64,000 bases of DNA from Trueperaceae bacterium (lineage in GTDB: Bacteria; Deinococcota; Deinococci; Deinococcales; Trueperaceae): NCBI GenBank assembly GCA_965213925.1, contig OZ243927.1, forward strand, positions 1,664,001 to 1,728,000. The letters run 5' to 3'. A program made the translations under genes and the position numbers. Below the pieces are notes generated by a model, which worked only from the letters and a program-made list of their open reading frames with translations, had not been told where the DNA came from and ran no database searches. Below, in pieces: positions 4,801 to 58,262 of this stretch. Within the stretch, counting starts at the first letter, position 1. Each line of letters begins with the position of its first letter.

Positions 4801-7652
4801 ACCTACCGGGTTACCGCAGAACGTTTACACCAGGCTTTTTGATCAATCCGAACGCCGTCGAGGTCGTGCTCACCGAACAAGACGAAGTCAGGGTGTGCCC
4901 TCGCAGCCGCATGGTCAGCCACAACAAGGTGCTCAACCGCTCGCCAGAATTCCCCAACCTCGACCTGCAAAAGCGAACCACCCACTCGTATTTCAACCAG
5001 CAGTACCGCGACGTCATGCGGCTCGACCTGAGCGACGCGGAGGCGCATAGCGGTCAGGTTGATGGGGACGAGCGGCGCGAGATCGAGACGCGCTTTCGGA
5101 GCGACGACGATAAGCTCAACGTCCTCATCGCCACCCCGACGATGGAGATGGGCATCGATATCGGCTCGCTGTCCGCCGTGTATATGCGCAACGTTCCCCC
5201 GAACCCGGCGAACTACGCGCAGCGCTCCGGGCGTGCGGGTCGCAAGGGTCAGTCGGCGCTCGTCCAGGTTTTCTGCGGCGGTGGGGCGGCTAGAGGACCA
5301 CACGACCAGTACTTTTACCGCTACCCCGAGCGCATGATCAGCGGGCGGGTCTCCGCGCCCAGGTTCCTATTGGACAACGAGCGGCTCATCGCCTCACACA
5401 TCCACGCGCTCATCTTAGAGGTGCTCACCCAGCGCAACCAGCTCGAACTCCCTAAAACCGTACCCGACCTCGTCTCTACCGAAAACCCGACGGGCGTCTA
5501 CACGATGTACGCCGATCTCAAGCAGCGTTTCGAAAGTGGCTTAGCGAAGCACCGAGCCGCTATCATTCAAGCGGTACAAGACGCCTTCTCGAGCGAAATA
5601 GACCGCTTCGGCTGGCTCGACGCGGTCTTTATCGAGACCACCGTGGATCACTTCGTCCAAAACCTCGACGGCGTTTTGGACGAGTGGCGCGACGAGTATA
5701 GGCTCGCCAAAGGCGACTACGATTCGCTGACCATGCGGCTCAAGCATCTGCCTGACAGCCACCGGGACTATCAGGAGATCAGGCGCGAGCACGGGCACGC
5801 CTTTAGCCATGTTCAGTTTCTTAGAGGCGAGGGTAAAAGCAGCCTCGACCTGAGGCGCTACTTGGGCGGTCAGGGGTTCTTGCCTAACTACGCCTTCCCC
5901 CGCCGCGCCGCCCGCGTCGAATTTCGCACCGAGACATTCGACCAGCTCGAACGCCCGCCGCTCCTCGCCCTGCGCGAGATCGCGCCCGGCAATAGCCTCT
6001 ACTACAAGCGGCAGCACTTTCTGGTGTCTAGGGCGTCGATCCCTCAGTCCGGCTTCGACGACCGCCAGGCGAAACGCTGCCCTAGCTGCAAGCGTGTCAC
6101 CCTCCTCCAGGAGGACGCGCAACTCAACCTCTGTCCAGCCTGCGGTCAAGACCTCTCGAATGTCGCCGCCGCGATTGAGGCGGTTCGCTTGCCCGTCATG
6201 CAGGCTGAACCGCGCGCCCGCATCACATCCGACGCAGAGGAGCGTCAGCGGCGCGGCTTCCAGATCAGCTCCGACTACCGCCCCCGCCGCACGACGCGCC
6301 ACCAGGCGGACTTGGGCGGCGACACCTTGACCCTGAGCTACGAACATAACGGCGTCATCACCACGGTCAACGCCGGACCCAGAACGCTGCTTGGTGACGA
6401 GCAGCTCCTCGACGGCTTCGCCTTCTGCCCGCGCTGCAAGCGTTGGCTGTTTAGCGACGAAGCGATCCAGGAACACGTGCAAGAGAGCGGCGGAAAATGT
6501 CCTCAAAACGCGACCGCTGAGGACGTTAAGCGGAACCTCACCCTGTTCGTTGAGCAGCAGAGCGACGTTATCGCCGCCGATGTTCCCTATCCTGTCGACC
6601 TCCACCCTTCGAACGTGGATGCGTTTTACACCTCCCTCCTCTGGGCATTGCAGCGCGGCGCTCTCCTCACGCTGGAGCTTGAAGACGACGAGCTTTCGGG
6701 CTTCCTTCTCAGGCAAAACGACGAGCGCACCCCCTACCGCCTCGTGCTTCACGAGACCTCCGAGGGGGGGTTAGGCGCACTGTCCTCGCTCACCGACCCG
6801 CTGGCGTTTCGGGCGCTCGTCACCCGCACGCTGGAACTCCTCCATGACGCTGACGCTGCTGGCTGCGAACGGGCGTGCTACGAATGCCTCCTCTCCTACG
6901 AAAACCAGTACGAACACCACCACTTAGACCGCAACCTCGTGCTGCCCACTCTCCGGGCGGCGCGGGGGCTCGAGTGGCGTAAGGTTACCAGCGACGATCA
7001 TCTTCAGCACCTTAAAGAGCGCTGCCAGTCGAGCTTAGAGCGGCGCTTCTTAGACGAACTAAGCGAGCGCGGTATCCGCCTACCCGACCGAGCCCAGTCC
7101 CCTTTCGAGGTCATGCCGGGCGTCAATACCGTCGCGGACTTTTACTACCGCCCGGACCTCTATATCTACGTCGACGGACCCCACCACGACACGGACACCC
7201 AGCGAAAAAAGGACGCAGAAATCCGCGACGCGATGCTCATGTTCGGACTGGAACCCTTTGTGATTCGCCACGACGATGTTTGGAATGACAAACTCGAGAC
7301 GCTTCGCAACCGGCTGAGCAACGCCTCGGTTGCCCAGACGCCCCCCTCCGACTGGCGCGACATCATCGACCTTATTGGAGACATGGATGAGCGCTGGGCG
7401 AAACTCGTTGCAGATTTAAGCGAAAAAGGTCTTCCGAAACCCCACATCGACGATGTCTATAGAGACTTGAGCGCCGATGGTCAAACCACGGGCTACAGCG
7501 CACTCGCCATTTGGCGGAAGAACGGACGCGCCCTCGCTCTGGTAGACCAAGATACGCCGGACGCAGACTATAGCCTTTCTCTCCTGCGGGCTACTCCTGA
7601 AAGCCCACCTGACGACATCGCAAAGGCGATTGAGGAGTACCTGAACACGTGA
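1836..7652 (+). CDS. Large SF2 DEAD/DEAH helicase with DUF1998 and C-terminal DUF559/Vsr-like nuclease (fused DrmA/DrmB-like or DruE-like)
   Basis: GTGSGKS, YPMNALANSQ, DEVH, SAT, ATPTMEMGIDIG, YAQRSGRAGR; several CxxC pairs; DUF1998-type CERACYECLLSYENQ; ADFYY...YVDGPHHD nuclease motif; GAGGGG RBS before the TTG start. Confidence 0.9.
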   Translation: MVRIRLSEVDWKTPAHFFSAILPKLVTGDAGLDFTGVEAVKRPEVEPLLNNLAAMGWSEGELRERLGVETMNQNVQHVILPLFGLQPPEREAPPEFTNNPFSQLSEIQRTYKSYVDTFVNIKNEHVRAWVEDRVQRDNLLWNEPFLEIRRRFRAGPALEEFIGKGWLPASARPIFRVSAEDRDDTRPIRPHYHQAKALELAHEGKSFVVATGTGSGKSFAFGLPVIADALRNREKPGIKALILYPMNALANSQYADFAQRLHGSGLKVALYNGDTPYTKEEGEQFRSRVEAANLRFISDAELWSREEIRQTLPDILMTNYAQLELLLTRGEDRQLFPETHRGALRYLVLDEVHTYAGKRGAEVACLIRRLKQHTGTTRSLQMIGTSATVESDQGESGEGESAEDAITRFAETLFGQSVQGVISETYVEGGDTADTLLPADIGVSPSDISAFDGQDETVFALAEAVLERSLTPSERSPQAIGALFRDYAPLHFLEAALYEKPQPMSALVEGYKQRYRPEHTLEQVETELRAALFLGQYGELEREGVFEPRIVLKLHNFYSQGLGVSGTLTHPPALSIRGEAQLKTEDGFSAPAFPMVFCRVCGQEYYIADLKHAALQPSATIYEHTEDTFYLRPGAWSPDAEPLPDAWLTDKLGKVQAQFESHVPRNFRVDPLHAEVGEGEPFAFVKAPFLFCPTCQTSYDRRRSEIGKLIPYGMVGRSTATDILIARTLDVLPKDQRKVIGFVDNRQDTEFQAAHFRDLARKLVYRQTVVDILKHEPDQRTELDSLGTAVWKAWKNEDHRKVADTLYDASSKVGQAFQGLLQGFGVSDASRSQQPNILNLEEAGVVRYDYRFLDEVLNHDTFWRGLEGSEEVRHDFLRGFLDLMRRRDGTFEKSIFRNDVYIFDIQQPLDDNVRGERFWEPTYPTLFTLKSGQPNPKFAKTSALTGSSRRTKFEAWFMSVFDLERDAVRGKIETLVQLLKDANILHLENLPGYRRTFTPGFLINPNAVEVVLTEQDEVRVCPRSRMVSHNKVLNRSPEFPNLDLQKRTTHSYFNQQYRDVMRLDLSDAEAHSGQVDGDERREIETRFRSDDDKLNVLIATPTMEMGIDIGSLSAVYMRNVPPNPANYAQRSGRAGRKGQSALVQVFCGGGAARGPHDQYFYRYPERMISGRVSAPRFLLDNERLIASHIHALILEVLTQRNQLELPKTVPDLVSTENPTGVYTMYADLKQRFESGLAKHRAAIIQAVQDAFSSEIDRFGWLDAVFIETTVDHFVQNLDGVLDEWRDEYRLAKGDYDSLTMRLKHLPDSHRDYQEIRREHGHAFSHVQFLRGEGKSSLDLRRYLGGQGFLPNYAFPRRAARVEFRTETFDQLERPPLLALREIAPGNSLYYKRQHFLVSRASIPQSGFDDRQAKRCPSCKRVTLLQEDAQLNLCPACGQDLSNVAAAIEAVRLPVMQAEPRARITSDAEERQRRGFQISSDYRPRRTTRHQADLGGDTLTLSYEHNGVITTVNAGPRTLLGDEQLLDGFAFCPRCKRWLFSDEAIQEHVQESGGKCPQNATAEDVKRNLTLFVEQQSDVIAADVPYPVDLHPSNVDAFYTSLLWALQRGALLTLELEDDELSGFLLRQNDERTPYRLVLHETSEGGLGALSSLTDPLAFRALVTRTLELLHDADAAGCERACYECLLSYENQYEHHHLDRNLVLPTLRAARGLEWRKVTSDDHLQHLKERCQSSLERRFLDELSERGIRLPDRAQSPFEVMPGVNTVADFYYRPDLYIYVDGPHHDTDTQRKKDAEIRDAMLMFGLEPFVIRHDDVWNDKLETLRNRLSNASVAQTPPSDWRDIIDLIGDMDERWAKLVADLSEKGLPKPHIDDVYRDLSADGQTTGYSALAIWRKNGRALALVDQDTPDADYSLSLLRATPESPPDDIAKAIEEYLNT

Positions 7653-9745
7653 GGTTCATCATCGCCAGCACCTTTACCGATAGCCTCGCTAAGCTGGACC
7701 CGCAGAGCCAGTCTTTAGTCAAACAGTCCGCCTTCGACTTCCAACTCAACCCGGAGAACCCCGGCTTCCAATTTCACCGCGTTACCAAAGCGAAAGAGAA
7801 GCTCTTCTGGTCCTTTCGCGTCAACCGCGACATCCGCATCATCCTCTACAAGAGCGCAGCAGATTTCATCCTCTGTTACACCGACCACCATGACGCCGCT
7901 TATACTTGGGCTGAGCGGCGCAAGATGGACATCCACCCCGAAACGGGCGCTGCGCAGCTCGTCGAGATTCGGGAGCGGACCGAAGAGATCGTCCAGCGCA
8001 TCTATAAGCAGGTCGAGCAGGAGCCTGCCCTTTTCGAGCGCTACGAGCCTGACTATCTTCTCGCCTTGGGTGTTCCTCACGAGTGGCTCGACGCTGTACG
8101 GTACGTCGGCGAGGGTGGCTTCTTCGAACTCATCGGTGTGCTCCCGGAAGAGGCTGGCGAGCATCTCATGCAGCTTGCTCAGGGTCATCCCGTCCCTCGA
8201 CCCGTTCTACTCCGAGAACAAGACCCCTTCACGCACCCCGACGCCAAGCGCCGCTTTAGAGTCGTAGACCAAGATCAGCGGCTTTTAGAGAGCGCCCTCG
8301 CCGCGCCGTGGGAGCAGTGGATCGTCTTCTTGCACCCGGACCAACGCACTGTAGTTGAAAACGACTATAGCGGTCCCGCACGTGTCTCTGGCGGCGCGGG
8401 CACCGGCAAGACTGTTGTGGCGCTCCACCGCGTCGCCCACCTCGCCGAACAAAACCCCGATGCTCGCATTTTACTCACCACCTTTTCCACCACGCTCGCC
8501 AAACGCCTCCAGCACAACCTCGTCCTTCTCATCGGTGAAGAGGTTCAGACCCGCGTCACGGTCTGCAACCTACATAGCCTCGCCAAAGACCTTTGGGAAG
8601 CGCACGCCCAAGTACCCTTCAAACCCCTTACAGGTGACAAGCTCGCCCAGCATCTCCAACGAGCCATGAAAACCGTCGGGCATACTGAATTCTCTATCGA
8701 CTTTCTTAGGAGCGAGTGGCACGCACTCGTCGAAGAGTCGGGCATCGGCAGTTGGAACGCTTACAAGACCGTCCCGCGTACAGGGCGCAGCGTCCCGCTC
8801 GGAGCACGCCAACGGCGTGCGGTCTGGAACGTTTTTGAGGAGGTCAAACGCGCTCTACAAGCAGACAGCCTCACCAGCTTCAGCCAACTCTGCTTCGAAG
8901 CCGCGCACCTGTTCGCGGACGCCCCGAAGCCCTTTGATCATATTGTCGCGGACGAGATTCAGGACTTCGGCACGCCAGAGCTTACCTTCCTGCGCGCCCT
9001 CGTACCTGAAGCGCCGAACGACCTCTTCCTATGCGGTGACATGGGGCAGCGCATCTACAAGCCTCGAACTTCATTCTTAGCCCAAGGGGTTGATATCCGG
9101 GGACGCTCAACTATTCTCAGGCTCAACTATAGAACCACAGAGCAGATTCGCCGCTACGTCGATACCCTCTTGCCAGGCGCAATCGCCGACGGGGACGGCG
9201 AGACAGAAGCCCGCAACGCTGTTTCCGTTCTGAGCGGTCCTGAGCCTGAAGTCGCGTTATTCAGAGACACTTTAGAGGAAGCGGACCATGTCGCCAACTG
9301 GCTTAAAGCGCTTCTAAGCGGAGGCTATGAGGCGAGAGACATCGCCGTTTTCGCCCGCACAAAGGCTGTGCTTCAGGAGCGAGCTGAGCCCGTACTCGCA
9401 CGCTGCGGTATCGAGACCTGCCACCTAACGGACGACACAGCTTCCCTAGTCGAACACGCCGCTCTCGGCACAATGCACCGCGCTAAGGGACTGGAGTTCA
9501 AGGCTGTCCTCGTGGTGGGCTGCGAAAGTGAATTGCTTCCTCTCACTTGGGTGCTCAACTCCCTAGAACCAAGCGAACAAGACAGTTTCGTAGAGCAGGA
9601 GCGTAATTTACTCTATGTTGCGTGCACACGGGCGAGAGAGCGGCTTCTCCTTACCTCCGTCGGTACGCCGTCGCGGTATCTCGCGAATGAGATGTACACG
9701 GTCTCGTCAAAAGGCGGCAAGGTTTCGGGCGGGTGGAACTCGTAG
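7649..9745 (+). CDS. UvrD/SF1 helicase with N-terminal RelE/ParE-superfamily domain (copy 1)
   Basis: N-terminal FWSFRVNRDIRII...YTDHHDAAY; GGAGTGKT, DEIQD, GDMGQRIY, NYR, HRAKGLEF, LYVACTRAR; GTGA overlap with the upstream helicase stop. Confidence 0.88.
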   Translation: MRFIIASTFTDSLAKLDPQSQSLVKQSAFDFQLNPENPGFQFHRVTKAKEKLFWSFRVNRDIRIILYKSAADFILCYTDHHDAAYTWAERRKMDIHPETGAAQLVEIRERTEEIVQRIYKQVEQEPALFERYEPDYLLALGVPHEWLDAVRYVGEGGFFELIGVLPEEAGEHLMQLAQGHPVPRPVLLREQDPFTHPDAKRRFRVVDQDQRLLESALAAPWEQWIVFLHPDQRTVVENDYSGPARVSGGAGTGKTVVALHRVAHLAEQNPDARILLTTFSTTLAKRLQHNLVLLIGEEVQTRVTVCNLHSLAKDLWEAHAQVPFKPLTGDKLAQHLQRAMKTVGHTEFSIDFLRSEWHALVEESGIGSWNAYKTVPRTGRSVPLGARQRRAVWNVFEEVKRALQADSLTSFSQLCFEAAHLFADAPKPFDHIVADEIQDFGTPELTFLRALVPEAPNDLFLCGDMGQRIYKPRTSFLAQGVDIRGRSTILRLNYRTTEQIRRYVDTLLPGAIADGDGETEARNAVSVLSGPEPEVALFRDTLEEADHVANWLKALLSGGYEARDIAVFARTKAVLQERAEPVLARCGIETCHLTDDTASLVEHAALGTMHRAKGLEFKAVLVVGCESELLPLTWVLNSLEPSEQDSFVEQERNLLYVACTRARERLLLTSVGTPSRYLANEMYTVSSKGGKVSGGWNS

Positions 9746-9821
9746 GGCCCGCCTAAAGCATCGCCGATGAGGAGACCGACCAAAACTCCGGTGAGGTGGT
9801 CGGATCATCTAATGAGAATAA

Positions 9822-9971
9822 CACCGCGAGGACATCAAGGCGGCGGTGCGCTCAGCGGTCAAGCGGGTGCTGAGACACCGCAAGGTCAAGCGGGAGGACT
9901 GGGACACGCTGGTGGTGCTTATCATGGACCAGGCGGAGGCGCTGTATAAGGACTGGCCGCAGGCGGCGTAG
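9822..9971 (+). pseudogene. 3' remnant of a type I restriction subunit R (DUF3387-like tail)
   Basis: Reads HREDIKAAVRSAVKRVLRHRKVKREDWDTLVVLIMDQAEALYKDWPQAA*; about 11 mismatches in 150 bp versus 23890-24039 (hand count). Confidence 0.75.
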
Positions 9972-10157
9972 TCGCCAAGTCCTTCACCCTTCACTAAAAT
10001 GGGTCAACCCCACCACAGAACCCGTTGGAGCCCTGCCGCTGTAAGAATTCTGTCAGTGGATGCTCTTTATGCTTGAAGCGATTGCTCGCTCATTAAGAAA
10101 ATATACAAACGGAGGTTTGGACAAGCTGAGCGGGCGTCCGAGGCACGGGAGGACTCT

Positions 10158-12245
10158 ATGATTCGGATGAAGGCATCATTCCTTACGGAACTGCACAGCT
10201 TGCCTGCGGGACCACAAAAAAAGGCGGACAAGGTCATCACGGCTCTCGAGAGACAACGAGGGCGCTACCCGGACGCCATCAAGCTCAAAGGCTACCGCGA
10301 CCTCTACCGCGTCCGCATCGGCAAGTACCGCCTCATCTACGAGAAGAGCCGCAACCAAGTTTTGGCGCACTGCATCAGACCGCGAGCGACCGTATATAAG
10401 AGCTTGGAACTCGTCGAAGAGGAGCAGCTTGACCACTTGGACGCGGAGTTTGACGATGTACTCGACACCTCCCTATCAGCCGAACGAGAGGTTGGTCATG
10501 GCGAAGAAGACTTACCCGAGCGGCTCACCCCTCAGTTCCTGAGCGCGTGGAACATTCCTAAGCCCTACCACAGCGCCCTAGCACATTGCCGCACCGAGAC
10601 GGACCTCTTGGAGACCTGCCTTAAAGGGGTACCCTACCCCGTCTTTTCCAGTCTCATCGCCGCTCTATACCCGTCAAACCTTCAGCAGCTACAAGCGGAC
10701 GCGACCTACCGCCTGCCTAGCGAAGAGGAGCGTAAACGCCTCGCGGCGGGCGAGCTGACTAGCTTTTTGCTGGTTTTAGACGACGAGCAGACCCGCTTGG
10801 CGGAGCTGAGCCTGGATACCGCGCGAGGACCGATCCTCGTCAAGGGCGGACCGGGCAGCGGCAAGAGCACCATCGCCCTACACCGCATCAAAAAGATTCT
10901 GGAGCGGGAACACCAGAAGCTCGCAGACGCCCCCGTGCGCATCCTCTTCGCCACCTATACCAAAGCACTCACCAACGCCAACAAAGAGCTGCTGAATAGC
11001 CTGCTAGGGACGGGCAAGCACACCGTCGAGGTCACTACCGTCGACGCGGTGGCTTATCGAGTCGTGAGAAAGTGTGGGTCGTTACCCGTAGAGCGGTTGA
11101 GCGAGGACCACGCCGCGACCCTGAAGTTTTTTAGAGAGGCCAAGGCGTCTGTAAACCTCCCTAAGTCGCTTCAAGCCTTTCAGGAGGGCTACCTTGTCGA
11201 AGAACTCTTCCAGGTCATCGAAGCTCAGGGGCTCCTGACCGAAGAGGACTACTTGCGCAGCAAGCGACTGGGTCGCAAAGCCAAGCTCCCGAAGGCCGCG
11301 CGGCAGGCGCTCTGGAGCATCTACGAGCGCTTCTTGGAGCGGATGCTCGCGGCGCGGATGCAGACCTGGGACGGGCTCCGCACCGAAGCCTACGGCTACG
11401 TGCGAAACGGCATCTACGGGGAGAAGTACGACTACGTGGTCATCGACGAGGCGCAAGACCTCACCCCCTCCGGGCTGCGCCTGATGGTCGAACTCTGCAA
11501 GCACCCTAACGCCCTCTACCTCACCGCAGACGCCGACCAAGCGCTCTACAAGTCGGGTTTCTCGTGGCGCAAGGTCCACGCCGACCTCAACGTCAGCGGG
11601 CGCACCTACGTGCTCAGGCGCAACTACCGCAATACCCAGGAGATTAGCGCGGCAGTAGACGATATCCAGCAGCAGATGAGCGGCGAGCGCCAAGAAGCCC
11701 ATCAACTAGGCGTGAAACGGGGGCGCAAACCGAAAGTGATTTTGACAACGCCAAACACAGAGGTCGCCCAGCTCAAACAGCACCTCAAGGCGGCGTGCAA
11801 GGACACTAAGCAGCCCCTCACCAACGTCGCGGTGCTCCTCGCCGGCGACCAGAAGTACGCCCACACGCGGGGTCGGCAGCTCGCCCAGGCACTTAAAGAC
11901 ACCGGCTTGCCCGCGAACTACTTCGCCGCCAAAGATTTGAGGCTTGACGCACGCTGCATCAAGGTCATGTCGCTTTACGCGAGCAAAGGGTTGGAGTTCC
12001 CGGTCGTAGTCCTCTGGGATGTCAACGACGGTCTCCTGCCACGTCGGGTGGAGCACCTACCCGAAGCGGAGCAGCGCGAGGAAGCGAGTCGAGACCGGCG
12101 GCTTTTCTACGTCGGGGCGTCGCGGGCCATGCAGAGTCTAGCGGTGTTTGCGGACCGGGACAAAGTCTCGCGGTTTGTTACGGAGCTGTCACCTGATGTC
12201 TGGGAATTGCCCGCTTGGGATGAGGCGGTGTTGAAGGCTGCTTGA
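10158..12245 (+). CDS. UvrD/SF1 helicase with N-terminal RelE-like ribonuclease domain (copy 2)
   Basis: IKLKGYRDLYRVRIGKYRLIYE...IRPRATVY is RelE-like; GGPGSGKS, DEAQD, NYRN, SKGLEF, YVGASRA; GGAGG RBS. Confidence 0.88.
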   Translation: MIRMKASFLTELHSLPAGPQKKADKVITALERQRGRYPDAIKLKGYRDLYRVRIGKYRLIYEKSRNQVLAHCIRPRATVYKSLELVEEEQLDHLDAEFDDVLDTSLSAEREVGHGEEDLPERLTPQFLSAWNIPKPYHSALAHCRTETDLLETCLKGVPYPVFSSLIAALYPSNLQQLQADATYRLPSEEERKRLAAGELTSFLLVLDDEQTRLAELSLDTARGPILVKGGPGSGKSTIALHRIKKILEREHQKLADAPVRILFATYTKALTNANKELLNSLLGTGKHTVEVTTVDAVAYRVVRKCGSLPVERLSEDHAATLKFFREAKASVNLPKSLQAFQEGYLVEELFQVIEAQGLLTEEDYLRSKRLGRKAKLPKAARQALWSIYERFLERMLAARMQTWDGLRTEAYGYVRNGIYGEKYDYVVIDEAQDLTPSGLRLMVELCKHPNALYLTADADQALYKSGFSWRKVHADLNVSGRTYVLRRNYRNTQEISAAVDDIQQQMSGERQEAHQLGVKRGRKPKVILTTPNTEVAQLKQHLKAACKDTKQPLTNVAVLLAGDQKYAHTRGRQLAQALKDTGLPANYFAAKDLRLDARCIKVMSLYASKGLEFPVVVLWDVNDGLLPRRVEHLPEAEQREEASRDRRLFYVGASRAMQSLAVFADRDKVSRFVTELSPDVWELPAWDEAVLKAA

Positions 12246-12417
12246 CGAGTCTAGCGTTCGCCTTCGTGGAGGCAGCTACTGAGGAGCACCGCTGGGTGAA
12301 CGAACGTCGCGACGAAGCCAGTTCTTATGGACACTACCAACCACTGCACACTATCCACCATAGCCACGCACTTTGCACCAACGAAAGGATCAGCAAAACT
12401 ATGACTGCGAGGATTTC

Positions 12418-13119
12418 ATGCTGATAGCCCGACTTTCTCTTCGGATTATCTACCCGCTATGCTTCGCTTTAGCCTCACTTCTCTCTTTCGGCCTCGCCCA
12501 ACCGGGGAGTCCACCTCCACTGGGACTCGTTCTCAAAATCGAAACGGCGCAGCGGCTCAGACAGGGACAACTAGAAAAGCTCGTCTGGATCGAGCGAGCC
12601 ACCGCTAAGCGCGTTGAGGTGTTTACCAGCAGATCAGGTCGGACGCACGTGCGATTTGATTTCGAGGCGAACGGTGAGTGGTTTTCCGCCATCATGTTTG
12701 CCGGTGAATGGACGGAAACCGAGGTCTCACTGCTGCGTTCCCAAGAGGTTAGTCTAATCGGACTCTGGGACAGATACGGCGGCGCGCATTCACTGGTGAC
12801 TAAGTGGGTGACGCTCGCAAACGCTTACGCGGACCCCTACGAAACGGCTCAGGCTGTTGACCGGGAACGAGACATGGTCAGCATAGAGAACGCTCACACC
12901 TATGACATCACTAAGTTTGTAAGCCGATCAACCCGGATGCACGCGCGTTTCAAATTTCGCGTTGCGGGTCGTAGCGACGAGTTTAGCGGCATCGTTTATG
13001 AGGGCGTGTGGAACACCGATCTGCTGGACCGATTACGCTCTGGAACGGCTAATCTGGTGGGCTACTGGGAGGAGTATCAAGGTGAACCCTCGTTTGTACT
13101 CCGCGCTGTGGAGCCCTGA
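12418..13119 (+). CDS. Putative exported protein with two tandem OB-fold-like repeats
   Basis: GAGG RBS then ATG at 12418; signal-peptide-like N-terminus (LCFALASLLSFGLAQ); internal repeat FTSRSGRTHVRFDF...FSAIMF.GEW...LIGLWDRYGGAHSLV versus FVSRSTRMHARFKF...FSGIVYEGVW...LVGYWEEYQGEPSFV. The OB fold is inferred from the beta-strand pattern. Confidence 0.65.
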   Translation: MLIARLSLRIIYPLCFALASLLSFGLAQPGSPPPLGLVLKIETAQRLRQGQLEKLVWIERATAKRVEVFTSRSGRTHVRFDFEANGEWFSAIMFAGEWTETEVSLLRSQEVSLIGLWDRYGGAHSLVTKWVTLANAYADPYETAQAVDRERDMVSIENAHTYDITKFVSRSTRMHARFKFRVAGRSDEFSGIVYEGVWNTDLLDRLRSGTANLVGYWEEYQGEPSFVLRAVEP

Positions 13120-14867: not shown

Positions 14868-14936
14868 CTGCTTGGTTTTTCAGCGGGTCACGTGAACATC
14901 AAAGTGCAACCTTAAATGCCTAATTGTAAATCCCTG

Positions 14937-14960
14937 TTTCCACTTTCCGGAAAGTGGAAA
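14937..14960. promoter_or_regulatory. Perfect 24-bp palindrome, probable autoregulatory operator of the downstream HTH gene
   Basis: TTTCCACTTTCCGGAAAGTGGAAA is its own reverse complement and lies 7 bp upstream of a TAAGCT -10 element (14968-14973). Confidence 0.7.
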
Positions 14961-14979
14961 TCTGTGTTAAGCTGTGCTT

Positions 14980-16510: not shown

Positions 16511-16710
16511 ACCAGTAACCATTATCAAGCTCACGAGTGTGATCAACTGCCGAACGCGGTGTATTGTGCTCTGCCTATATGTTTACCCCAGACACTGGTA
16601 GAAGCTAGCAGGCAGGCGTCAGCCGCGCGTCGGTATGGACTGATGGCGGTTCTAGGCGCACCATAACGTCTACCCCTCGGGTTAGAAGCAAATTAGTCAC
16701 GACGAGAGCG

Positions 16711-24039: not shown

Positions 24040-24091
24040 CCGGCGAAGTGAACGACTCACCTCTGACTGGCTTTCTCAACGTAAGTTCCGC

Positions 24092-35705: not shown

Positions 35706-35717
35706 GCTCGCTCAAGA

Positions 35718-38335: not shown

Positions 38336-38553
38336 ACCGAAGTCCCTCCGTCCCTTCCGCACACATCCTTGATCCGCAAACGTGAGCACAAGGAGACGCT
38401 GAGCGACTTCACCCTATAGGGGAAGAGAAGAGCGGTACTACAGATGTGCTAGGAATAGTGTAGCTCGAGAGGGGTAGGCAGCGCACTGTTGTTGTCGGTC
38501 AGCGCGGCATAAACGCTCCATACTGGCGCAACAAGGTTCCCGCCACAAAAACG

Positions 38554-48169: not shown

Positions 48170-48281
48170 GAACTGCTCCTCGGCTTATATGCCCACACCA
48201 TATCTTTCAGAGCGGGTTGCGCGTTGTGCAGCCTGTCACTTTGAACTGGGGGCGTGACGTTCGCTAGTTCTCTAATAGACT

Positions 48282-50220: not shown

Positions 50221-50232
50221 TAGCCGCATCAT

Positions 50233-51088: not shown

Positions 51089-51273
51089 AAACACTCGACT
51101 AAACAGCTCATAAAAGGCTAGCAAATGCAACACAAACCTTCTCTCTCTTGCGAGTTTTTTCATGGCATGCCCCCAACCATGCTGGGTTATCATGCAAAAC
51201 TCATGATACGAAAAATTTCGCTTCGACTCGTCTTCACTAATAGTGGAACGAATGGTCAGTGGTAGGAGACTCT

Positions 51274-54200
51274 GTGGAAGAATCATCAGTCCAGGACAAA
51301 GCGCTGCGGCTCGTCCAGTTCTTGCGCGAATATGTCCAGCTCAGAACGTCGATTACGCGCGACGTGCGCGACTACGCCTCAGCCACGGACGGCGGCGTTT
51401 TTTGGCTCAAAGACTTACCCGAGCACGACCACTGCAAAGCGGTCTTCGCGCAAGACCGCTTGCCGGAAGATGTCTGGCTGAGCGTTCAAAAACCAGACTT
51501 AGAAGACCCGCCAGAGCCGAAGCTGGGCTTGAAGCCCTGGGTCAATAACGCTGCTCGGCTACAGGAGCCCGCCCTTCGAGATAAAGTCTTTCTCCCTAAT
51601 CCCGCCTTTGTCGAGGGTGAGGACAGTGCAGCCGAGTTGGAGCACGCCCTCGAAGACAACCCCGAGGTCCAGGAGATGTGGGAGGAATATCTCCAGGAGT
51701 GGCGTCGTTGGCGCTACCAAAATCAACGAGAACTCGCTGTCCAGAACGCCTACAACACGCTCTACAGCCTCTACAGAACATTCAACCAGAACCGCGAAGC
51801 TTCAGAACTTGTCGTCGGTTTAGGGTTAGCAACTTGGAAACCAGAAATTGACGCGCCCGTTCGTAGACACATCATGGTGGCGAAAACGGAACTGGCATTC
51901 GACCGCGTTCGCGGGATCATCACCCTCCGCTGCCCTTCACCGCCAGAAGGGGCGTCGCTCTCGCTCGAGGACGAGTTCTTGCCGGTCAAGCCGGACCTAG
52001 CGGAGCGGGCCAGGATCAACGACTTCATCGAGGAAGTCGGCAACGACATTTGGGATGAAGCCAAGCTGAGACCCGCGTTTCGGGCACTCGCCAATACGGT
52101 AGACGCAAGAAATGACTTGAGCTTCGAGCTAGAGCCGCAGACTACTCAGGGTCCGCACCTAAATATCGCGTTTGCGCCCGCCCTTATCTTACGTAAACGC
52201 GGGCTCTCCGGCATTCTCAAGGTTTACGATGACATCGGTCAGCAAATCTCTTCTCAGGGTTATGTTCCATTGGGACTGACGCGGCTAGTCGAGACGCAAG
52301 ATGACGCTTTACCTAAAGGTCAAAGTACCCACGAAGATACGGCGTCAAGATTATCGCCTAACGAAACCCTCTACTTCCCTCTGCCCACGAATAGCGAGCA
52401 GGAACGCATCGCAAAAAGCCTCATGCAGCGGCAAGGGGTCCTCGTCCAGGGACCGCCCGGTACAGGCAAAAGCCACACTATCGCGAACCTCGTCAGCCAC
52501 CTGCTCGCCCAAGGCAAGCGCGTTTTGGTGACGAGCGAGACGGCGCGGGCTTTGGAAGTTCTTCAAGATAAAATCCCGGAGCCTGTCCAGGCACTCTGCG
52601 TGAGCCTTTTAGGAGCCAGCAGCCAATCGTTCTCGGAGTTGAATAAATGTATCAACGACATGACCCAGCGGCACGCCCACTACAATGCGTCCGCTTACGC
52701 CGCCAAAATCGAACGCCTAGAGCAGAAGTTGTCAGAGGCGAAGGCGCAGCGAGCAGAGGTCAACAAGGAGTTGATGACGCTTCGAGGGGCAGAAACGCGC
52801 TCGGGTCAAATCAATAGCCGGTATAGGGGTACCGCTTCAAGTATAGCGAGGCAAGTGCAAAGAGATAAACCCCGCTACGGGTGGTTCAGGGCTAAAGACC
52901 GCGACGAGGCTCCCCTCACCACCTTAGAAGCCCTTGAACTCCTCGAGGGCTTGAGGCGGTTCACTCCTGAACATCGGCAGACACTGAACTTGCAAACGCC
53001 TAGTCGCGAAGATTTACCTTTACCTACAGGAGACGAGTTCGCGGAGCTTGTCGAACACGAAAACTGGGCTAGGGACGGGCGCACCGGCTTCGACGCGGTT
53101 AAGGGTCAGGAAACTTTTCGCGAGATTCAGAGGCTGGAGACCTCTTCTCGAGCAGAACTCTCACAACTAGCGGGTGAGTTTTTGGGTGCGCTCAGCTCTC
53201 TGCGGCAAAGACGAGAGCCCTGGGTTGACGAAGTTGTCAGTGATGTCTTAGCGGGACGCGCGAGCCGCTGGCAGGTTCTCTACGACAACACAGACCCCCT
53301 ATTCAAAAAGGAAAACCTGCGAGAGGGAGCGAGGCTCGCAGACACCACAAGGACACAACTGCCCGAAGGCGCTGACTCTCAACAGGTTCTCGCAGACGCC
53401 CGCGTCATGCGCGACCACCTAGAGAGCGGTAAGGGCTGGGGCTTTCTCGGCATCCCGTCCGGTCCGGCAAAGGGCAAGACGTATCTGCGCAAGGTGAACG
53501 TTGACGGTAAGTCGGCGGAGACATACGAAGTGCTGCGGCAGCTCACCTTCATCCTCTCGTTTAAGGAAAACCTGGCGCGGGTGTGGCAGTACTGGGCGGA
53601 CAAAGTCACGCGCCCAGACCTCTACGAACTCCAGGTCGTCGAGCTGGAAGAGCAGTCGAGCACGCTCCAGAGTGTGCTGGACCTTCAAAAAGTCGCGCAA
53701 CGACTCAGGAACACACTTGCCGAGTGCAACTTACACCTCACTGTAGAGGTCTCGCCCAAAGGCGTCGAGCAGCTCTCGCGACTCTTAAAGGCGGCGGACG
53801 CAGAAGCCTCCTTCGAGCTGAGCGCCGAGCCCCTCGAAGCCCTTCACGAAGAGTTGCGCTACCTAGCGCAAGGCGAAGCGGTCCACCCAATAACGCAGCG
53901 CTTTCTCGACGCGCTGCGTGAACGCGACAAGCGTGAGTGGGCGGCTACTTATAATCAATTCGGCGACATCGAGAGCGAACGTACCGAGATGCGCCGAGTT
54001 GATGAGCTGCTGGCGAGGCTGGAGCAAGTAGCGCCAGAGGTCGCCGCTTCTCTGACCAGCGACCCTGCTCACAGAACTTGGGACGAGCGTATAGGGCACT
54101 TTGAAGAGGCGTTCGCGTGGTCGCACGCCCAGCACTGGCTGAATAAGCTCAACGACGCGAATTATCACCGCGAATTGGAGCGCAACTACGACTTGTTGAG

Positions 54201-55773
54201 CAAAAAGATCAACGACATCACAGCAGAACTCGCCGCAGAGAAGGCTTGGCACCACTTCCTGAGCCGACTCACACCTAAACAGAGCGCGAGTCTTCAGGCT
54301 TGGCAGCAAGCCATCAAAAGAGTTGGTAGAGGCACGGGACGACACGCCGCCAGATACCGCCGCGTCGCTCAGGAACATATGGCAGAGTGCATTCCCGCCA
54401 TTCCCGCCTGGGTCATGCCGCGCTTCCGCCTTCCTGAAACGATGTCTATAAAACAGGGGATGTTCGATGTGGTCATCGTAGACGAGGCGAGCCAGACAGG
54501 TATTGACGGGCTCTTCCTCAATTACATCGCTAAACAAGTCGTCGTTGTAGGGGACGACCAGCAGATCAGCCCCTCGAACGTGGGCATATCTGAAGAGAAA
54601 GTAACTGAGTTGCAAGGCAGATACCTAGACGGTATTCATCTCGGCTCGCTCATGGGTCCCGCTGTGAGCTTCTACGACATGGCTAAGATTCTCTTCCAAA
54701 GCCAGAGCAAGATCGTCTTGCAAGAGCACTTCAGGTGTATGCCCGAGATTATCCGCTTCTCGGACACCCTTTGTTACGCGGCGAGCGGGACACCCCTCAT
54801 CCCCTTGCGCAATTATCCGCCGGATCGACTGAAGCCCTTGCAGAGCGTGTACATTTCTGAGGGCTACCAAGAGGGCACGTCGAGCAACGCCGTCAACAAG
54901 CCAGAAGCGCGAGCCGTCGTGAACACCATCCTGACATGCGTCAACAGCCCTGAATACGAGGGGAAGACGATGGGCGTCATCTCTCTTCTAGGCAAAAGGC
55001 AAGCCGACGCCATCGGCAATATGCTCATCGAGGAGCTGGGCGCGGAAGAGGTCGAAGCCCGCAACCTCGTGTGGGGTGACGCCTACAGCTTCCAGGGCGA
55101 CGAGCGGAACGTGATGTTCTTGAGTTTAGTTTCAGCGCCAGGAGAGCGTGCGGTCTCGGCGCTAACCTCGGAGTCGGCTAAGCAGCGCTTTAACGTCGCG
55201 GCGAGCCGAGCTAAGGACCAGATGTGGCTCTTCCGCAGCGCCAAGTTAGAGCACATGAGCCCCAACCTGAACTGCGTGCGGCGCAAGCTGGTCGAGTTCT
55301 TCACCCAGCACAACCACGCTGTCCTGAACGAACACGGTATTGAAGATATTGCTCAGCTTGAAGTTGAAGCGCGTCGAAGAGGTGAGCAGAGCGTCGCCCC
55401 GTCGCCCTTCGACAGTTGGTTTGAGGTGGACGTGTTTCTCGACCTCCACCGCCGAGGCTATAGGGTCACTCCGCAGTTCCCGGTGGCGCAGTACCGGATT
55501 GATCTCGTTGTCGAGAGCCGAAGGGGGCGACTCGCTATAGAGTGTGACGGCGACTTCTGGCACGGACCTGAACAGTACGCCCACGACATGGAGAGGCAAC
55601 GGCAGTTAGAGCGCTCCGGCTGGGAGTTCTACCGGATACGGGGTAGCCACTACTACACGGACCCGCAAAAAGCGCTGGAGCCGCTCTGGGAGGAGCTGGA
55701 GCGCCGCGAAATCTATCCAGCGCGTGTTGAATCCTTAGACGAAGATACGCTGCCAAAGGTGGCTCACCTATAG
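51274..55773 (+). CDS. Large SF1 (Upf1/DNA2-like) helicase with C-terminal Vsr/DUF559-like endonuclease
   Basis: QGPPGTGKSHT, DEASQ, VGDDQQ, EHFRC, FQGDE, FNVAASRA; FDSWFE...YRIDLVV...AIECDGDFWH; AGGAG RBS before GTG 51274 (the ORF extends to 51259). Confidence 0.9.
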   Translation: MEESSVQDKALRLVQFLREYVQLRTSITRDVRDYASATDGGVFWLKDLPEHDHCKAVFAQDRLPEDVWLSVQKPDLEDPPEPKLGLKPWVNNAARLQEPALRDKVFLPNPAFVEGEDSAAELEHALEDNPEVQEMWEEYLQEWRRWRYQNQRELAVQNAYNTLYSLYRTFNQNREASELVVGLGLATWKPEIDAPVRRHIMVAKTELAFDRVRGIITLRCPSPPEGASLSLEDEFLPVKPDLAERARINDFIEEVGNDIWDEAKLRPAFRALANTVDARNDLSFELEPQTTQGPHLNIAFAPALILRKRGLSGILKVYDDIGQQISSQGYVPLGLTRLVETQDDALPKGQSTHEDTASRLSPNETLYFPLPTNSEQERIAKSLMQRQGVLVQGPPGTGKSHTIANLVSHLLAQGKRVLVTSETARALEVLQDKIPEPVQALCVSLLGASSQSFSELNKCINDMTQRHAHYNASAYAAKIERLEQKLSEAKAQRAEVNKELMTLRGAETRSGQINSRYRGTASSIARQVQRDKPRYGWFRAKDRDEAPLTTLEALELLEGLRRFTPEHRQTLNLQTPSREDLPLPTGDEFAELVEHENWARDGRTGFDAVKGQETFREIQRLETSSRAELSQLAGEFLGALSSLRQRREPWVDEVVSDVLAGRASRWQVLYDNTDPLFKKENLREGARLADTTRTQLPEGADSQQVLADARVMRDHLESGKGWGFLGIPSGPAKGKTYLRKVNVDGKSAETYEVLRQLTFILSFKENLARVWQYWADKVTRPDLYELQVVELEEQSSTLQSVLDLQKVAQRLRNTLAECNLHLTVEVSPKGVEQLSRLLKAADAEASFELSAEPLEALHEELRYLAQGEAVHPITQRFLDALRERDKREWAATYNQFGDIESERTEMRRVDELLARLEQVAPEVAASLTSDPAHRTWDERIGHFEEAFAWSHAQHWLNKLNDANYHRELERNYDLLSKKINDITAELAAEKAWHHFLSRLTPKQSASLQAWQQAIKRVGRGTGRHAARYRRVAQEHMAECIPAIPAWVMPRFRLPETMSIKQGMFDVVIVDEASQTGIDGLFLNYIAKQVVVVGDDQQISPSNVGISEEKVTELQGRYLDGIHLGSLMGPAVSFYDMAKILFQSQSKIVLQEHFRCMPEIIRFSDTLCYAASGTPLIPLRNYPPDRLKPLQSVYISEGYQEGTSSNAVNKPEARAVVNTILTCVNSPEYEGKTMGVISLLGKRQADAIGNMLIEELGAEEVEARNLVWGDAYSFQGDERNVMFLSLVSAPGERAVSALTSESAKQRFNVAASRAKDQMWLFRSAKLEHMSPNLNCVRRKLVEFFTQHNHAVLNEHGIEDIAQLEVEARRRGEQSVAPSPFDSWFEVDVFLDLHRRGYRVTPQFPVAQYRIDLVVESRRGRLAIECDGDFWHGPEQYAHDMERQRQLERSGWEFYRIRGSHYYTDPQKALEPLWEELERREIYPARVESLDEDTLPKVAHL

Positions 55774-56168: not shown

Positions 56169-58262
56169 TTATGCGCCCAAGTCGTTCACAAATTCAGACG
56201 CTGGCTCCACCCCCGACACGAACAAGAAGTCCCGCGCCCGCGTACACGCCACATAGAGCAAATGCCGTTCCGTGTTGTAGACCTCTTCTAACTCAGCGTC
56301 GTCCGTAACGGTTTCTATCCTCTCTTGCAGCGGCAAGACCTCGTCGTCGCAAGCCATCACCACGACAGCGCGAAATTCGAGCCCCTTGGCGTAGTGCATG
56401 GTGCTCACAGCGGTGTGACCTTCTGGTAACTGATAGTTCTTGCTCAGTACGTGAAAAGGAAGCTCGATCCTTTCCACCGCGCCCTTAGCCCGCTCTAGCT
56501 GCTCATCCGAGCGGACGAACACGCCTATTTCTTCGGGCTTCACCCCTTTGCTTTTCTGCTCTGCAAGCCACGCGCTCACAGCCTGCACCTCATCCCCTGG
56601 CGTGTCGAAGGTCTGAATGACCGGAGCAGGTCCGTTAAAGACCGAGATGGTCCCCTTACGTTGCTCCTTGATACCGTCCACATCGGCGAGTTCAGGCGCG
56701 AGCAAGAGGTCCGCTTGCATCCTGATCTGGTGCGAAGTGCGGTAGTTGATGTGCAGCGTGTGGGAACGTCCGCGTACGTCTACACCTAAAGCCTTCCACG
56801 AGAAGGGCGGCTGGAAGATGCGCTGACCCAAGTCGCCCGAGAAGAAAAGCCCATTAGGTTTATCGCCCACCAGCGCCGCTAAGAACCTCAGTTGCGCGAC
56901 GCTGACATCTTGCGCCTCATCAAGAACGACGTAGTCGAAGGGCGAGGGCTTCTCAGCGTATGAAGCGGTGAGTTCCTGGTACATGCTCGAGACCGTCAAC
57001 AACCCACGCGCCTTGAGTCCAGCGCGAACGTGCTCGAAGAGCGACCATAAGACTTCACGCTGCTTCTCAGGCAAGCGCCGCCGCCTGCCCAAGCGCGGTA
57101 CGTCTCGGTAGCTCTCCCAATTATCCAGTTGCCATGCGTCCACAATCTGCTCCCACTCAGCGAGCAGGAATTGCGGGCTAAATGATGCACCTTCAGCCTT
57201 CGCAGCCGCTTCATCTAACAGCGCGGCGACATCGGCGCGTGTTGCAAATATGGGTTGCTTGCCGCTCAGTTTGTAGAGGCGCTTAGCAACGGCGTCTAGG
57301 GAGTAAACATCTATTCTCTCCTTGAGACGCGGCTGATTGCTCACTAGTGCTCGCAGCTTCACATCTAGCGCGTTCGCGAGCGAATTAGAGAAGGTCGTGA
57401 GTAAAACTCTCGCTTCATCATCCTCACGCGCTAAAAAGACCGCTCGGTGCAGCGCCACCACCGTCTTGCCCGTACCCGCTGAGCCCGCCACCCTAGCAGG
57501 TCCACCATAATCACGCTCTACCAGCTCACGCTGGGCAGGGTGCAAGAAGACCGTCCACTTCTCCCAGGGGAATTCGAGCGCCCGCTCTAATGTCTCCACG
57601 TCATTCATCACCCTGAAGCGCCGCTGCGCGTCAGGATGGGCGAAGGGGTCCGCGTCCTCGGGGAGCGGCTGCGCGACCTGTGGCGTTACCCCGACAGCGA
57701 GGTCTAGTAGCGCCTCAGCCGCCTCTTGGGGCAGGTGGTCCGCCAAGTTTAGCAGTGTCTCCTCAGTTGCTTTTTGCACATCTTCCAACCACTCAGGCGG
57801 CACGCCGTAAGCGAGTAAATCCTCTTCGGACATGTCGGCGAAAAGTGGCGAAAGTTCGGTCTTTACCTCTTTCTGAGGCTCGGACTGCGGCACTTCGGCT
57901 TCGATATAGCTAGGAATCACGATCTCTTTGACCGTCTCTCGCACCTCCACAAGCTGCGCTGCGCCCGTTTTAGGATGCCGCTCCAGCTTGCGCCGCTCCC
58001 CCCAGCGGTACGCCTCGTCATGATGCGCCACGTAGCAGAGCAGCAGGCTCCGCTCAGACCTGTGCACGATGAGCCGCACATCGAGGTTCACCCGCGCTGA
58101 CCAGAAGCCGTCGTCTTTGGCGCGTTCCAGGCGGTGCAACTGCATACTCGGATGCGCTGGGTTGAGTTGCAAATCGAACGCTGTCGTCTTCACCGCCCGC
58201 TGCTCGTCGGCTGTGAGCTTCGCTAAACTATCCGTGAAGGTATCGGCAATCAAGAAATCCAC
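56169..58262 (-). CDS. UvrD/SF1 helicase with N-terminal RelE/ParE-superfamily domain (copy 3)
   Basis: FWSARVNLDVRLIV...YVAHHDEAY; GSAGTGKT, DEAQD, HYAKGLEF, LYVACTRAR; GTG overlaps the mod stop (TAGTG). Confidence 0.9.
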   Translation of the reverse strand: MDFLIADTFTDSLAKLTADEQRAVKTTAFDLQLNPAHPSMQLHRLERAKDDGFWSARVNLDVRLIVHRSERSLLLCYVAHHDEAYRWGERRKLERHPKTGAAQLVEVRETVKEIVIPSYIEAEVPQSEPQKEVKTELSPLFADMSEEDLLAYGVPPEWLEDVQKATEETLLNLADHLPQEAAEALLDLAVGVTPQVAQPLPEDADPFAHPDAQRRFRVMNDVETLERALEFPWEKWTVFLHPAQRELVERDYGGPARVAGSAGTGKTVVALHRAVFLAREDDEARVLLTTFSNSLANALDVKLRALVSNQPRLKERIDVYSLDAVAKRLYKLSGKQPIFATRADVAALLDEAAAKAEGASFSPQFLLAEWEQIVDAWQLDNWESYRDVPRLGRRRRLPEKQREVLWSLFEHVRAGLKARGLLTVSSMYQELTASYAEKPSPFDYVVLDEAQDVSVAQLRFLAALVGDKPNGLFFSGDLGQRIFQPPFSWKALGVDVRGRSHTLHINYRTSHQIRMQADLLLAPELADVDGIKEQRKGTISVFNGPAPVIQTFDTPGDEVQAVSAWLAEQKSKGVKPEEIGVFVRSDEQLERAKGAVERIELPFHVLSKNYQLPEGHTAVSTMHYAKGLEFRAVVVMACDDEVLPLQERIETVTDDAELEEVYNTERHLLYVACTRARDFLFVSGVEPASEFVNDLGA

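Follow-up and report, generated by a model that had tools for sequence, protein, structure and literature searches.

A 64,000-nucleotide (nt) stretch of a Trueperaceae genome (contig OZ243927.1, positions 1,664,001 to 1,728,000 of the forward strand; hereafter, the window) contains three genes, denoted copies 1, 2, and 3, for proteins in which a RelE-like N-terminal domain is fused to a UvrD-type helicase. The three genes belong to one old family of superfamily 1A (SF1A; UvrD/GajB-like) helicases, of which the published member is ArmD of the ARMADA type II antiphage system. Copy 1 encodes ArmD and stands last in a complete ArmA-ArmB-ArmC-ArmD cluster. Copy 3 is the conserved third and terminal gene of a restriction operon with the order res, mod, helicase, and copy 2, a member of a sister family, is stranded here beside a relic of hsdR. 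One protein architecture serves three contexts in one genome. The reading favored here, to which a probability of about 0.6 is assigned, is that these proteins are required helicase subunits of a partner restriction machine and that the RelE-like domain is a predicted ribonuclease (RNase), restrained in cis and acting locally.

Architecture and fold of the three helicases

Copies 1, 2, and 3 are located at 7649–9745 (+), 10158–12245 (+), and 56169–58262 (−), respectively, and encode proteins of 698, 695, and 697 amino acids (aa); the three open reading frames (ORFs) of about 695 aa listed in a first-pass annotation of the window were confirmed at these sites. The UvrD-helicase and UvrD_C domains are present in all three proteins, and the residues of the Walker A, DExQD, and motif VI elements are complete, leaving the SF1 core intact. 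In copy 1, a RelE/YoeB/YafQ-fold domain (approximately aa 1–86; 7649–7906) is followed by a conserved helical linker (approximately aa 130–225) and a UvrD-type core (aa 229–669; 8333–9655). In copy 2, a RelE-type domain (approximately aa 1–81; 10158–10400) precedes the linker and the UvrD-type core, and the RelE-fold domain of copy 3 spans approximately aa 1–88 (57999–58262). The best PADLOC matches of the helicase core are the GajB and NERD+UvrD models (GajB, E 2.4e-31 for copy 1). When the whole genome (4.75 Mb) was searched, copies 1–3 were the only family members found, and the next helicase match was an ordinary UvrD/Rep-type gene.

Copies 1 and 3 share 45% identity from end to end and 51% identity in the N-terminal 230 aa. 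Between copies 2 and 1, identity is 25% and confined to the helicase part. A profile–profile comparison (hhalign) of family 1, to which copies 1 and 3 belong, with family 2, to which copy 2 belongs, aligned 218 N-terminal columns with a probability of 97.7% and an E value of 2.4e-12. Since the N-termini of the two families align by profile, the RelE-like domain, the helical linker, and the motor represent one inherited architecture. Longer homologues were also encountered: a 952-aa protein (P0055) carries an extra protein kinase domain and an 881-aa protein (P0192) carries an extra PF04326 domain. To judge from these sequences, the RelE-helicase frame can accept further fused domains.

The first 230 residues of copy 1 were modeled with AlphaFold using 38 sequences, and the mean predicted local distance difference test (pLDDT) score of the model is 88.2. 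A Foldseek comparison of this model with the Protein Data Bank (PDB) returned YoeB, RelE, YafQ, HP0894, and HigB as the top matches, with target-normalized template modeling (TM) scores of 0.63–0.75 over 82–88 columns. In a search of 48,161 chains that is independent of Foldseek, ranks 1–24 were occupied entirely by the RelE/ParE superfamily (Z 5.6–8.9), and the first unrelated fold appeared only at Z 4.0. The best match was YafQ, with a Z of 8.9 and a deviation of 2.2 Å for 85 of 90 residues over model range 1–86. No structural match above Z 3.1 was obtained for the helical linker (approximately aa 130–186). Matches of the first 95 aa of copy 1 to Spt6 in the PDB sequences were set aside as chance only. 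The RelE/ParE fold (β-α-α-β-β-β) is recognized in copy 1 by the model, in copy 2 by sequence, and in copy 3 through its 51% identity to copy 1 rather than through a model of its own. The RelE fold that had been read from the N-terminal sequences in the first-pass annotation is supported by these results.

Copy 2 scores 23.1 bits against the Pfam family ParE_toxin, for which the cutoff is 23, and ParE structures occur among the fold matches of the copy 1 model (Z 5.9–6.7). Both observations would suit a domain that poisons DNA gyrase or topoisomerase instead of cutting RNA. Such an activity is considered highly improbable: YafQ, RelE, and YoeB are the best fold matches, and copy 2 aligns with the archaeal RelE structures 3bpq_B (E 8e-4) and 1wmi_A (E 8.3e-4) and, more weakly, with E. 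coli RelE, and its basic residues are conserved in these alignments. The Pfam family PF05016 also covers RelE-like proteins.

No Pfam family was detected at E ≤ 0.05 in the seven small ORFs that flank the three copies, and no cognate antitoxin gene adjoins them, as had been noted previously; copies 1 and 3 each overlap the gene before them. A further search was directed at short proteins related to the N-terminal domain. The 178 proteins that resemble it (E ≤ 0.001, of 191 candidates) look like cut or decayed helicase genes rather than stand-alone toxins; those listed are 111–379 aa long and 57–75% identical, and some include the start of the helicase domain.

The three genes in their neighborhoods

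Copy 1 closes an operon that was identified as ARMADA type II. The gene for ArmA (975 aa, SNF2/BrxHII-like, with SNF2-rel_dom and Helicase_C; DrmD, 2.9e-109) lies outside the window, further upstream on the + strand. The gene for ArmB starts upstream of the window, and the final 464 aa of this 1427-aa PglX/DrmMI-like N6 methylase (Eco57I/MmeI_Mtase/N6_Mtase; DrmMI, 1.1e-92) are encoded at 2–1396 (+); the ORFs for armA and armB (L201:6186–9113 and L201:9113–13396) run into the window as far as position 1396. ArmC is a 1938-aa YprA-like DEAD/DEAH helicase encoded at 1836–7652 (+), with DEAD, Helicase_C, and MZB (DUF1998) domains. The GTG start codon of copy 1 lies inside the GTGA that ends armC, an overlap of 4 nt, in agreement with the earlier report that copy 1 overlaps the stop of a methyltransferase/DUF1998-helicase operon. 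The strict co-directional order of SNF2/BrxHII-like, PglX-like, YprA-like, and RelE-UvrD genes is the order that defines the type II system in the accessible part of Bell et al. (bioRxiv 10.1101/2025.09.15.676423). The same four-gene synteny was found in three other loci (L208, L217, and L220). PADLOC labels ArmC as DruE (models down to 2.9e-109), and copy 1 was considered for a time as a Druantia neighbor; this assignment was dropped because PADLOC-DB 2.0 contains no ARMADA model and the four-gene ARMADA order was found.

Homology to the E. coli protein was traced through an Escherichia relative (L074), which aligns with the family over the full length (residues 2–678) with 35% identity. This relative is 99% identical to E. 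coli loci; at an identity of 95% or more, such loci are present in 533 of the 5,426 complete genomes of that species. In the one E. coli locus that was opened (H3), a large helicase gene is followed by ArmA-, ArmB-, ArmC-, and ArmD-sized genes in a row. From this layout and from the strain descriptions, the L074-like loci of E. coli are taken to be the published armABCD. In the accessible part of the Bell et al. preprint, loss of any one gene among the four in E. coli ARMADA II abolishes protection, the K266A substitution in the Walker A motif of ArmD abolishes defense, D454N weakens it, and the mechanism is described as direct and non-abortive. The available portion of a second report indicates that armD is likewise required in an E. 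coli O157 background (mBio, PMC13463889). For E. coli ArmD alone, the need for the gene and for its ATPase has thus been shown. Because deletion of armD or mutation of its Walker A motif abolishes a direct, non-abortive defense, ArmD in E. coli is a core subunit and not a back-up of the PrrC/RloC kind.

Copy 3 is preceded by a methylase gene and a restriction endonuclease gene on the same strand. The mod gene (58262–61060, −) encodes a 932-aa N6_N4 DNA methylase (N6_N4_Mtase, 8e-30; PADLOC MTase_III model PDLC03632, 1383 bits), and the GTG start of copy 3 shares one base with its TAG stop (TAGTG). The res gene belongs to the BPTD_3080 family of restriction endonucleases and is split by a one-base frameshift just past the Walker A region. 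The 3′ ORF (61532–63904, −; 790 aa) matches the NCBIfam model NF046055 at 1041 bits over model positions 209–968 of 970. The 5′ ORF (243 aa; L202:829–1560) has its end at 63829–64000 (−), continues past the window, and shares 66% identity with the N-terminal 215 aa of an intact homologue; together, the pieces match model positions 1–198 and 199–968. Intact homologues in related loci are approximately 1,014–1,020 aa long. The frameshift may reflect a real inactivation or an error of sequencing or assembly. Copy 3 had been described as overlapping the stop of a type III mod gene. The overlap and the N6_N4 class of the methylase hold; the order is atypical, with res before mod in place of the two-gene mod-then-res order of classical type III restriction–modification (R-M) systems.

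Upstream of copy 2, the 3′-terminal 49 codons of a type I hsdR gene remain at 9822–9971 (+). This relic matches positions 286–328 of 329 of Pfam T1RH-like_C at 30.0 bits (cutoff 26.8) and ends 187 bp before copy 2, so that the hsdR remnant previously placed about 190 bp away is real. It is part of a repeat of about 150 nt (9822–9974 and 23890–24042, 92% DNA identity), and 47 of its 49 residues match those that end the ORF 23296–24039, a 247-aa C-terminal fragment of hsdR. No intact hsd gene was found among the scanned window ORFs of at least 150 aa; in place of intact hsdM, hsdS, or hsdR genes, only the 49-aa tail stands beside copy 2. Between copy 1 and the hsdR relic lies a second relic, the 5′ end of an ADP-ribosylglycohydrolase gene (9613–9804, −; ADP_ribosyl_GH positions 1–25, 24.2 bits against a cutoff of 26.2). 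It runs antisense over the last 19 or so codons of armD, which explains the odd C-terminal tail of ArmD. The sequence is repeated (repeat D3, 9688–9803 and 49089–49204, 85% DNA identity), with the intact gene at 48282–49223, and points to recombination between the two defense islands of the window. From the two relics it follows that the junction of copies 1 and 2 is a recombination scar and not an operon.

Family 2 is widespread, many of its members carry a precomputed ParE_toxin match, and the JGI name for them is "superfamily I helicase/RelE". A sample of 21 full-length loci was examined with PADLOC at E ≤ 1e-12, of which 11 are metagenomic and 10 were located in 9 of 401 cyanobacterial genomes. 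In 5 of the 21 loci, the neighbors are DISARM class I genes (DrmMI, DrmA, DrmB, and DrmC), a DruE-like helicase is encoded directly downstream in 2, and a PD-T4-6-like kinase is encoded downstream in 2. Type I R-M genes were found in none of the 21 at that threshold. In the window, no DISARM, DruE-like, or type I partner adjoins copy 2. Downstream of it (12373–16178, +), an uncharacterized 248-aa protein and a 582-aa NERD protein with a terminal "sunset" domain are encoded, followed by a PDC-M21A/B pair (AbiEii-like) and then an integrase gene.

The statement in the first-pass annotation that each copy lies behind a different class of R-M system was not upheld: copy 1 follows ArmC, copy 2 follows a 49-aa relic, and only copy 3 follows an R-M system. 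Although one of its genes encodes a methylase, the ArmABCD cluster is no R-M system of the classical type.

Partner systems across the family

In a scan of one genome per species, at least 561 helicase relatives were recovered. The analysis used the best 80 loci, which are the closest to copy 1 and favor its lineage. When all ORFs of these loci were clustered, only three recurrent neighbors emerged, namely, the methylase, the endonuclease, and a DruE/ArmC-like helicase. Homologues of mod (64–68% identical) occur in 47 of the 80 loci and homologues of res (67–76% identical) in 35. Gene calls by a crude, greedy longest-ORF procedure failed at 7 of the 80 loci and split some mod genes, and the counts that follow were therefore taken from tblastn coordinates. 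In the 50 loci for which 6 kb or more of upstream flank is available, a mod homologue (MOD) lies upstream in 37, an ArmC-like gene in 7, and neither in 6; the family is thus strongly linked to restriction-type systems with a methylase and a helicase. There are 42 MOD-linked loci at all flank lengths; a res homologue (RES) lies upstream of MOD in 32 of them, and the helicase is last and co-directional without exception.

The distance between mod and the helicase varies. The two genes abut (gap ≤120 nt) in 9 of the 42 MOD-linked loci, as in the window, and are separated by 0.47–8.5 kb in the other 33, with a gap above 1 kb in 25. The inserted ORFs were compared with Pfam (77 ORFs) and PADLOC (57 ORFs from 26 loci, with opposite-strand and most small ORFs left aside). 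At least one catalogued defense protein (PADLOC, E ≤ 1e-15) was detected in the gap at 16 of the 26 loci. The cargo includes PD-Lambda-5 with SoFic (L006), IetA/IetS (L013; IetS also in L021), HEC-01 (L015 and L047), SIR2-HerA (L017), AbiL with PDC-S02 (L032), Lamassu LmuA/LmuB (L048), and DarT-DarG (DarTG; L051). With catalogued defense genes in this position, the gap behaves as a swappable cargo slot.

Linkage was also examined in 363 genomes of the phylum to which the window belongs, one unpublished genome being left out, with a helicase threshold of E ≤ 1e-60. The helicase is present in 14 of 18 RES-positive genomes and in 58 of 345 RES-negative genomes; the genomes include kin that are not independent, and these figures are descriptive and do not amount to a test. 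In each of the seven genomes with RES and the helicase on one contig, the two are co-directional and the helicase follows RES by 2.9–6.2 kb. No paper on the res-mod-helicase operon was found, and none that contains the term "BPTD_3080"; this result is provisional, since most subscription journals and the supplementary tables of the ARMADA preprint were not covered. The operon is widespread and apparently undescribed.

When 95 helicases were placed on a maximum-likelihood tree, the RM-linked genes grouped in a single clade with a value of 100 in the Shimodaira–Hasegawa-like approximate likelihood ratio test (SH-aLRT), and copy 3 is inside it. All 38 members of this clade with a readable context are MOD-linked. 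The remainder of the tree requires at least eight changes of context, and a type I-linked gene (L218) is nested among the ArmDs. The trees are the product of quick searches and carry no bootstraps. Strict co-inheritance outside the RM clade was considered and rejected: a tree of the 80 loci gave a single context switch, and the addition of 20 loci raised this to at least eight. The copies of the window are thus not recent duplicates; each arrived with, or lost, its own system. As a separate observation, one RM-clade helicase (L209; G745:C1, approximately 6871–7341) has a mod piece of about 157 aa, 81% identical to the mod of the window, some 1.3 kb upstream; the arrangement appears to be a decayed three-gene operon.

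The type I-linked locus L218 (G637:C34, approximately 3500–12800) contains an intact hsdM-hsdS-[PDC-S14]-hsdR set, and a family 1 RelE-helicase gene follows about 150 nt later; the hsdR-helicase arrangement therefore exists in nature. This relative bears on the proposal of the first-pass annotation that the helicase detects when the neighboring R-M system is inhibited and then releases a translation-blocking RNase, resulting in abortive infection as with PrrC and RloC. The RelE fold, the conserved polar residues, the absence of an antitoxin, and the position of the helicase at the end of R-M-type operons are also in its favor, and a comparable concept has been proposed for HEPN domains in R-M systems, according to the accessible text of PMC3710099. 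The proposal is nevertheless judged improbable. The E. coli mutants described above lose the primary defense, and that defense is reported, in the accessible part of the preprint, as direct and non-abortive. In addition, the RM-linked helicases form one clade that keeps its MOD context, as a subunit would, unlike an add-on, and no sensor of anti-restriction is evident. The earlier observation was thus mostly right, while its interpretation as a back-up guard is unproven and partly contradicted by the published ArmD results. The linkage of RelE-SF1 fusions to restriction genes is real; the fusion itself had already been published as ArmD.

The 20 loci added from the phylum search belong to family 1 and were picked for long contigs without RES linkage, so that the following counts do not describe a random sample. 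Full or partial ARMADA II synteny was found in 5 of the 20. The helicase lies behind SbcC-like, AddB-like, and AddA-like genes in 3 (a fourth locus is a decayed version), is divergent from an AddAB-like pair in 3, follows a type I R-M system in 1, retains a mod relic upstream in 1, and is solitary among housekeeping genes in 5–6. In a basal family 1 locus (L063), the helicase is followed by DrmD and DrmMI. The family is modular, with at least five kinds of partner. An AddB-like PD-(D/E)XK protein (831 aa) and an AddA-like UvrD protein (809 aa) are also encoded as a pair in the window at 41190–46101 (−). Homologues of this pair (36–43% identity) lie directly upstream of family 1 RelE-helicases in L204, L206, and L210, with an SbcC-like ATPase before them, and the AddAB-like pair may be a further partner system.

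The solitary loci, the changes of context on the tree, and the lack of a partner for copy 2 in the window would be expected if the protein were a single-gene nuclease-helicase defense that gathers in defense islands and at operon ends, with no functional tie to its neighbors. This explanation is regarded as improbable. The start/stop overlap of copies 1 and 3 with the upstream gene, which couples their translation to it, the strictly terminal and co-directional position in the 42 MOD-linked loci, and the bracketing of cargo by mod and the helicase argue against it, as does the requirement for all four ARMADA genes given in the accessible part of the preprint.

The window itself is not one island. 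Defense genes are found at approximately 1–17.6 kb and at 41–64 kb, with signaling and metabolic genes between. The 3′ end of a tyrosine integrase gene occurs twice as a 300-nt direct repeat (94%), at 16702–17001 and 38545–38844, and the two copies bracket 21.8 kb of these signaling and metabolic genes; the first copy belongs to an intact gene (16711–17598) and the second to a 158-aa integrase fragment (38554–39030). A 1504-aa SF1 helicase (AAA_11/AAA_12) that carries an MTES_1575/DUF559 nuclease at its C-terminus is encoded at 51259–55773 (+), convergent with copy 3; its best PADLOC match is PDC-S37, and the NCBIfam models ProA and Hhe fall far below their cutoffs. At 46223–49223 (−), the ADP-ribosylglycohydrolase gene (313 aa) adjoins a type IV restriction gene that resembles GmrSD/HEC-05 (648 aa).

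Predicted role and comparison with known systems

The active site of E. coli RelE comprises K52, K54, and R61 together with R81 and Y87. In family 2, residues R51, R53, and R58 align with K52, K54, and R61 of RelE, and chained alignments place S55, R57, R63, H81, and Y85 of family 1 in the same columns as R51, R53, R58, R76, and Y80 of family 2. Among 38 family 1 sequences that are 27–54% identical to copy 1, residues R63, H81, A84, Y85, and W87 are the same in all, and R57, H80, and D82 in nearly all. At the level of sequence, the conserved polar columns would fit a RelE-type active site without proving one.

The domain could instead be non-catalytic and bind RNA, the ribosome, or a partner, the protein being a DNA motor or end sensor like GajB. 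The best PADLOC matches of the core to GajB and NERD+UvrD models point in this direction, and searches of the sequences of solved structures returned no RelE for family 1; a profile of the family 1 N-terminus found nothing in the PDB sequences at E values up to 10. The serine in family 1 at the column of RelE Lys52 and the non-abortive nature of ARMADA in the accessible preprint text would also agree. The invariance or near-invariance of the eight residues named above, at RelE active-site columns, is less easily explained in this way, and an adaptor role is considered possible and clearly less likely than catalysis.

In the favored reading, that of a required subunit with a cis-restrained predicted RNase, the partner machine (Res/Mod, ArmABC, HsdMSR, or an AddAB-like pair) would mark or cut unmodified DNA, and the helicase motor would load onto the resulting single-stranded DNA or ends. 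We infer that the substrates of the motor are DNA intermediates generated by the partner. Its engagement would free the RelE-like domain, otherwise restrained in cis, and the freed domain would cut RNA, most likely ribosome-bound mRNA as Cami1 does. The predicted outcome is local shut-off of invader expression and not killing of the cell. Local or limited action is preferred with modest confidence because a non-abortive ARMADA argues against wholesale destruction of mRNA.

Several observations weigh against the favored reading. The N-termini of 23 of 38 family 1 proteins touch the Pfam family HigB-like_toxin (best E 6.1e-5), and all fall below the cutoff. The catalytic equivalences derive from sequence and profile alignments and not from structural superposition, and the Lys52 column of RelE holds Ser in family 1. 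The partner system is not obligatory, since 5–6 of the 20 added loci are solitary, and the helicase is missing at E ≤ 1e-60 in 4 of the 18 RES-positive genomes of the phylum. The system of copy 3 may not restrict in this genome because res is frameshifted. In the accessible part of the ARMADA preprint, the non-abortive phenotype limits any global role of an RNase, and the ArmD mutants reported there are those of Walker A and Walker B only, with none in the RelE-like domain (bioRxiv 10.1101/2025.09.15.676423).

The commonest context among the closest relatives sampled is the three-gene restriction operon, which was not found in print, while the fusion and its ARMADA context have been published (2025–26). 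ArmD is essential in a recently published antiphage system. Should its RelE-like domain prove to be an active RNase, a link to translation would be built into restriction-type systems. The mod-helicase gap would also offer a new place in which to seek defense genes through "guilt by embedding". A broader and more speculative proposal, held only tentatively, is that the helicase is a portable third subunit that would link BPTD_3080 res-mod, type I R-M, ARMADA, DISARM, and AddAB/SbcC-like machines to ribosome-dependent cleavage of invader mRNA at the site of DNA attack, with the mod-helicase bracket as a landing slot for exchanged defense cassettes.

The closest known protein is ArmD of E. coli NCTC 12900, ATCC 8739, and EDL933, which has the same RelE-like N-terminus and GajB-like UvrD helicase as the genes of the window. 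Copy 1 shares its four-gene order, yet its lineage is far from the E. coli ArmD clade on the tree. Copy 3 differs in serving a res-mod operon without a YprA helicase, and copy 2 in belonging to the sister family and having no partner in the window. The operon of copy 3 resembles the classical type III R-M systems EcoP1I and EcoP15I in its N6_N4 Mod and its large helicase-nuclease Res, and PADLOC files the mod as MTase_III. It differs from them in the order of res then mod, the conserved third gene, and the internal cargo slot, as well as in the size of Mod (about 930 aa) and in a Res of about 1,014–1,020 aa from the BPTD_3080 family, for which matches to REase_III are weak (E 3e-5).

Nested defense cassettes are known for Hma, BREX, DISARM, and type I R-M systems from the accessible part of Payne et al. 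(bioRxiv 10.1101/2024.01.29.577857). Like the cargo between mod and the helicase, they are co-directional and lie between genes of the host system, and HEC-01 recurs here in L015 and L047; the res-mod-helicase operon is not among the nesting hosts named in that part of the preprint. GajB of Gabija shares the small SF1A core and provides the closest PADLOC helicase models. It differs in having no RelE-like domain, and no gene for GajA, an OLD-type ATPase-TOPRIM nuclease, lies beside copies 1–3, whose neighbors are ArmC, the hsdR relic with the uncharacterized 248-aa protein, and Mod, respectively.

Cami1, a CARF-RelE accessory of type III CRISPR systems, is similar in that a RelE-fold domain is fused to another domain in a defense system, and it appears among the fold matches of the copy 1 model (8phj_X with Foldseek; 8phb_A at Z 7.4). 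Its structure has been solved on the ribosome; a fused RelE domain can reach the ribosome. The sensor of Cami1 is a CARF domain that binds cyclic tetra-adenylate (cA4), whereas the genes of the window carry a helicase, and the likeness is known by fold and not by sequence. The anticodon nucleases PrrC and RloC place an RNase in or beside a type I R-M locus and are the precedent for a second line of defense. They differ from ArmD in fold and target and are dispensable for restriction, whereas ArmD is required, according to the accessible ARMADA text, for the primary defense.

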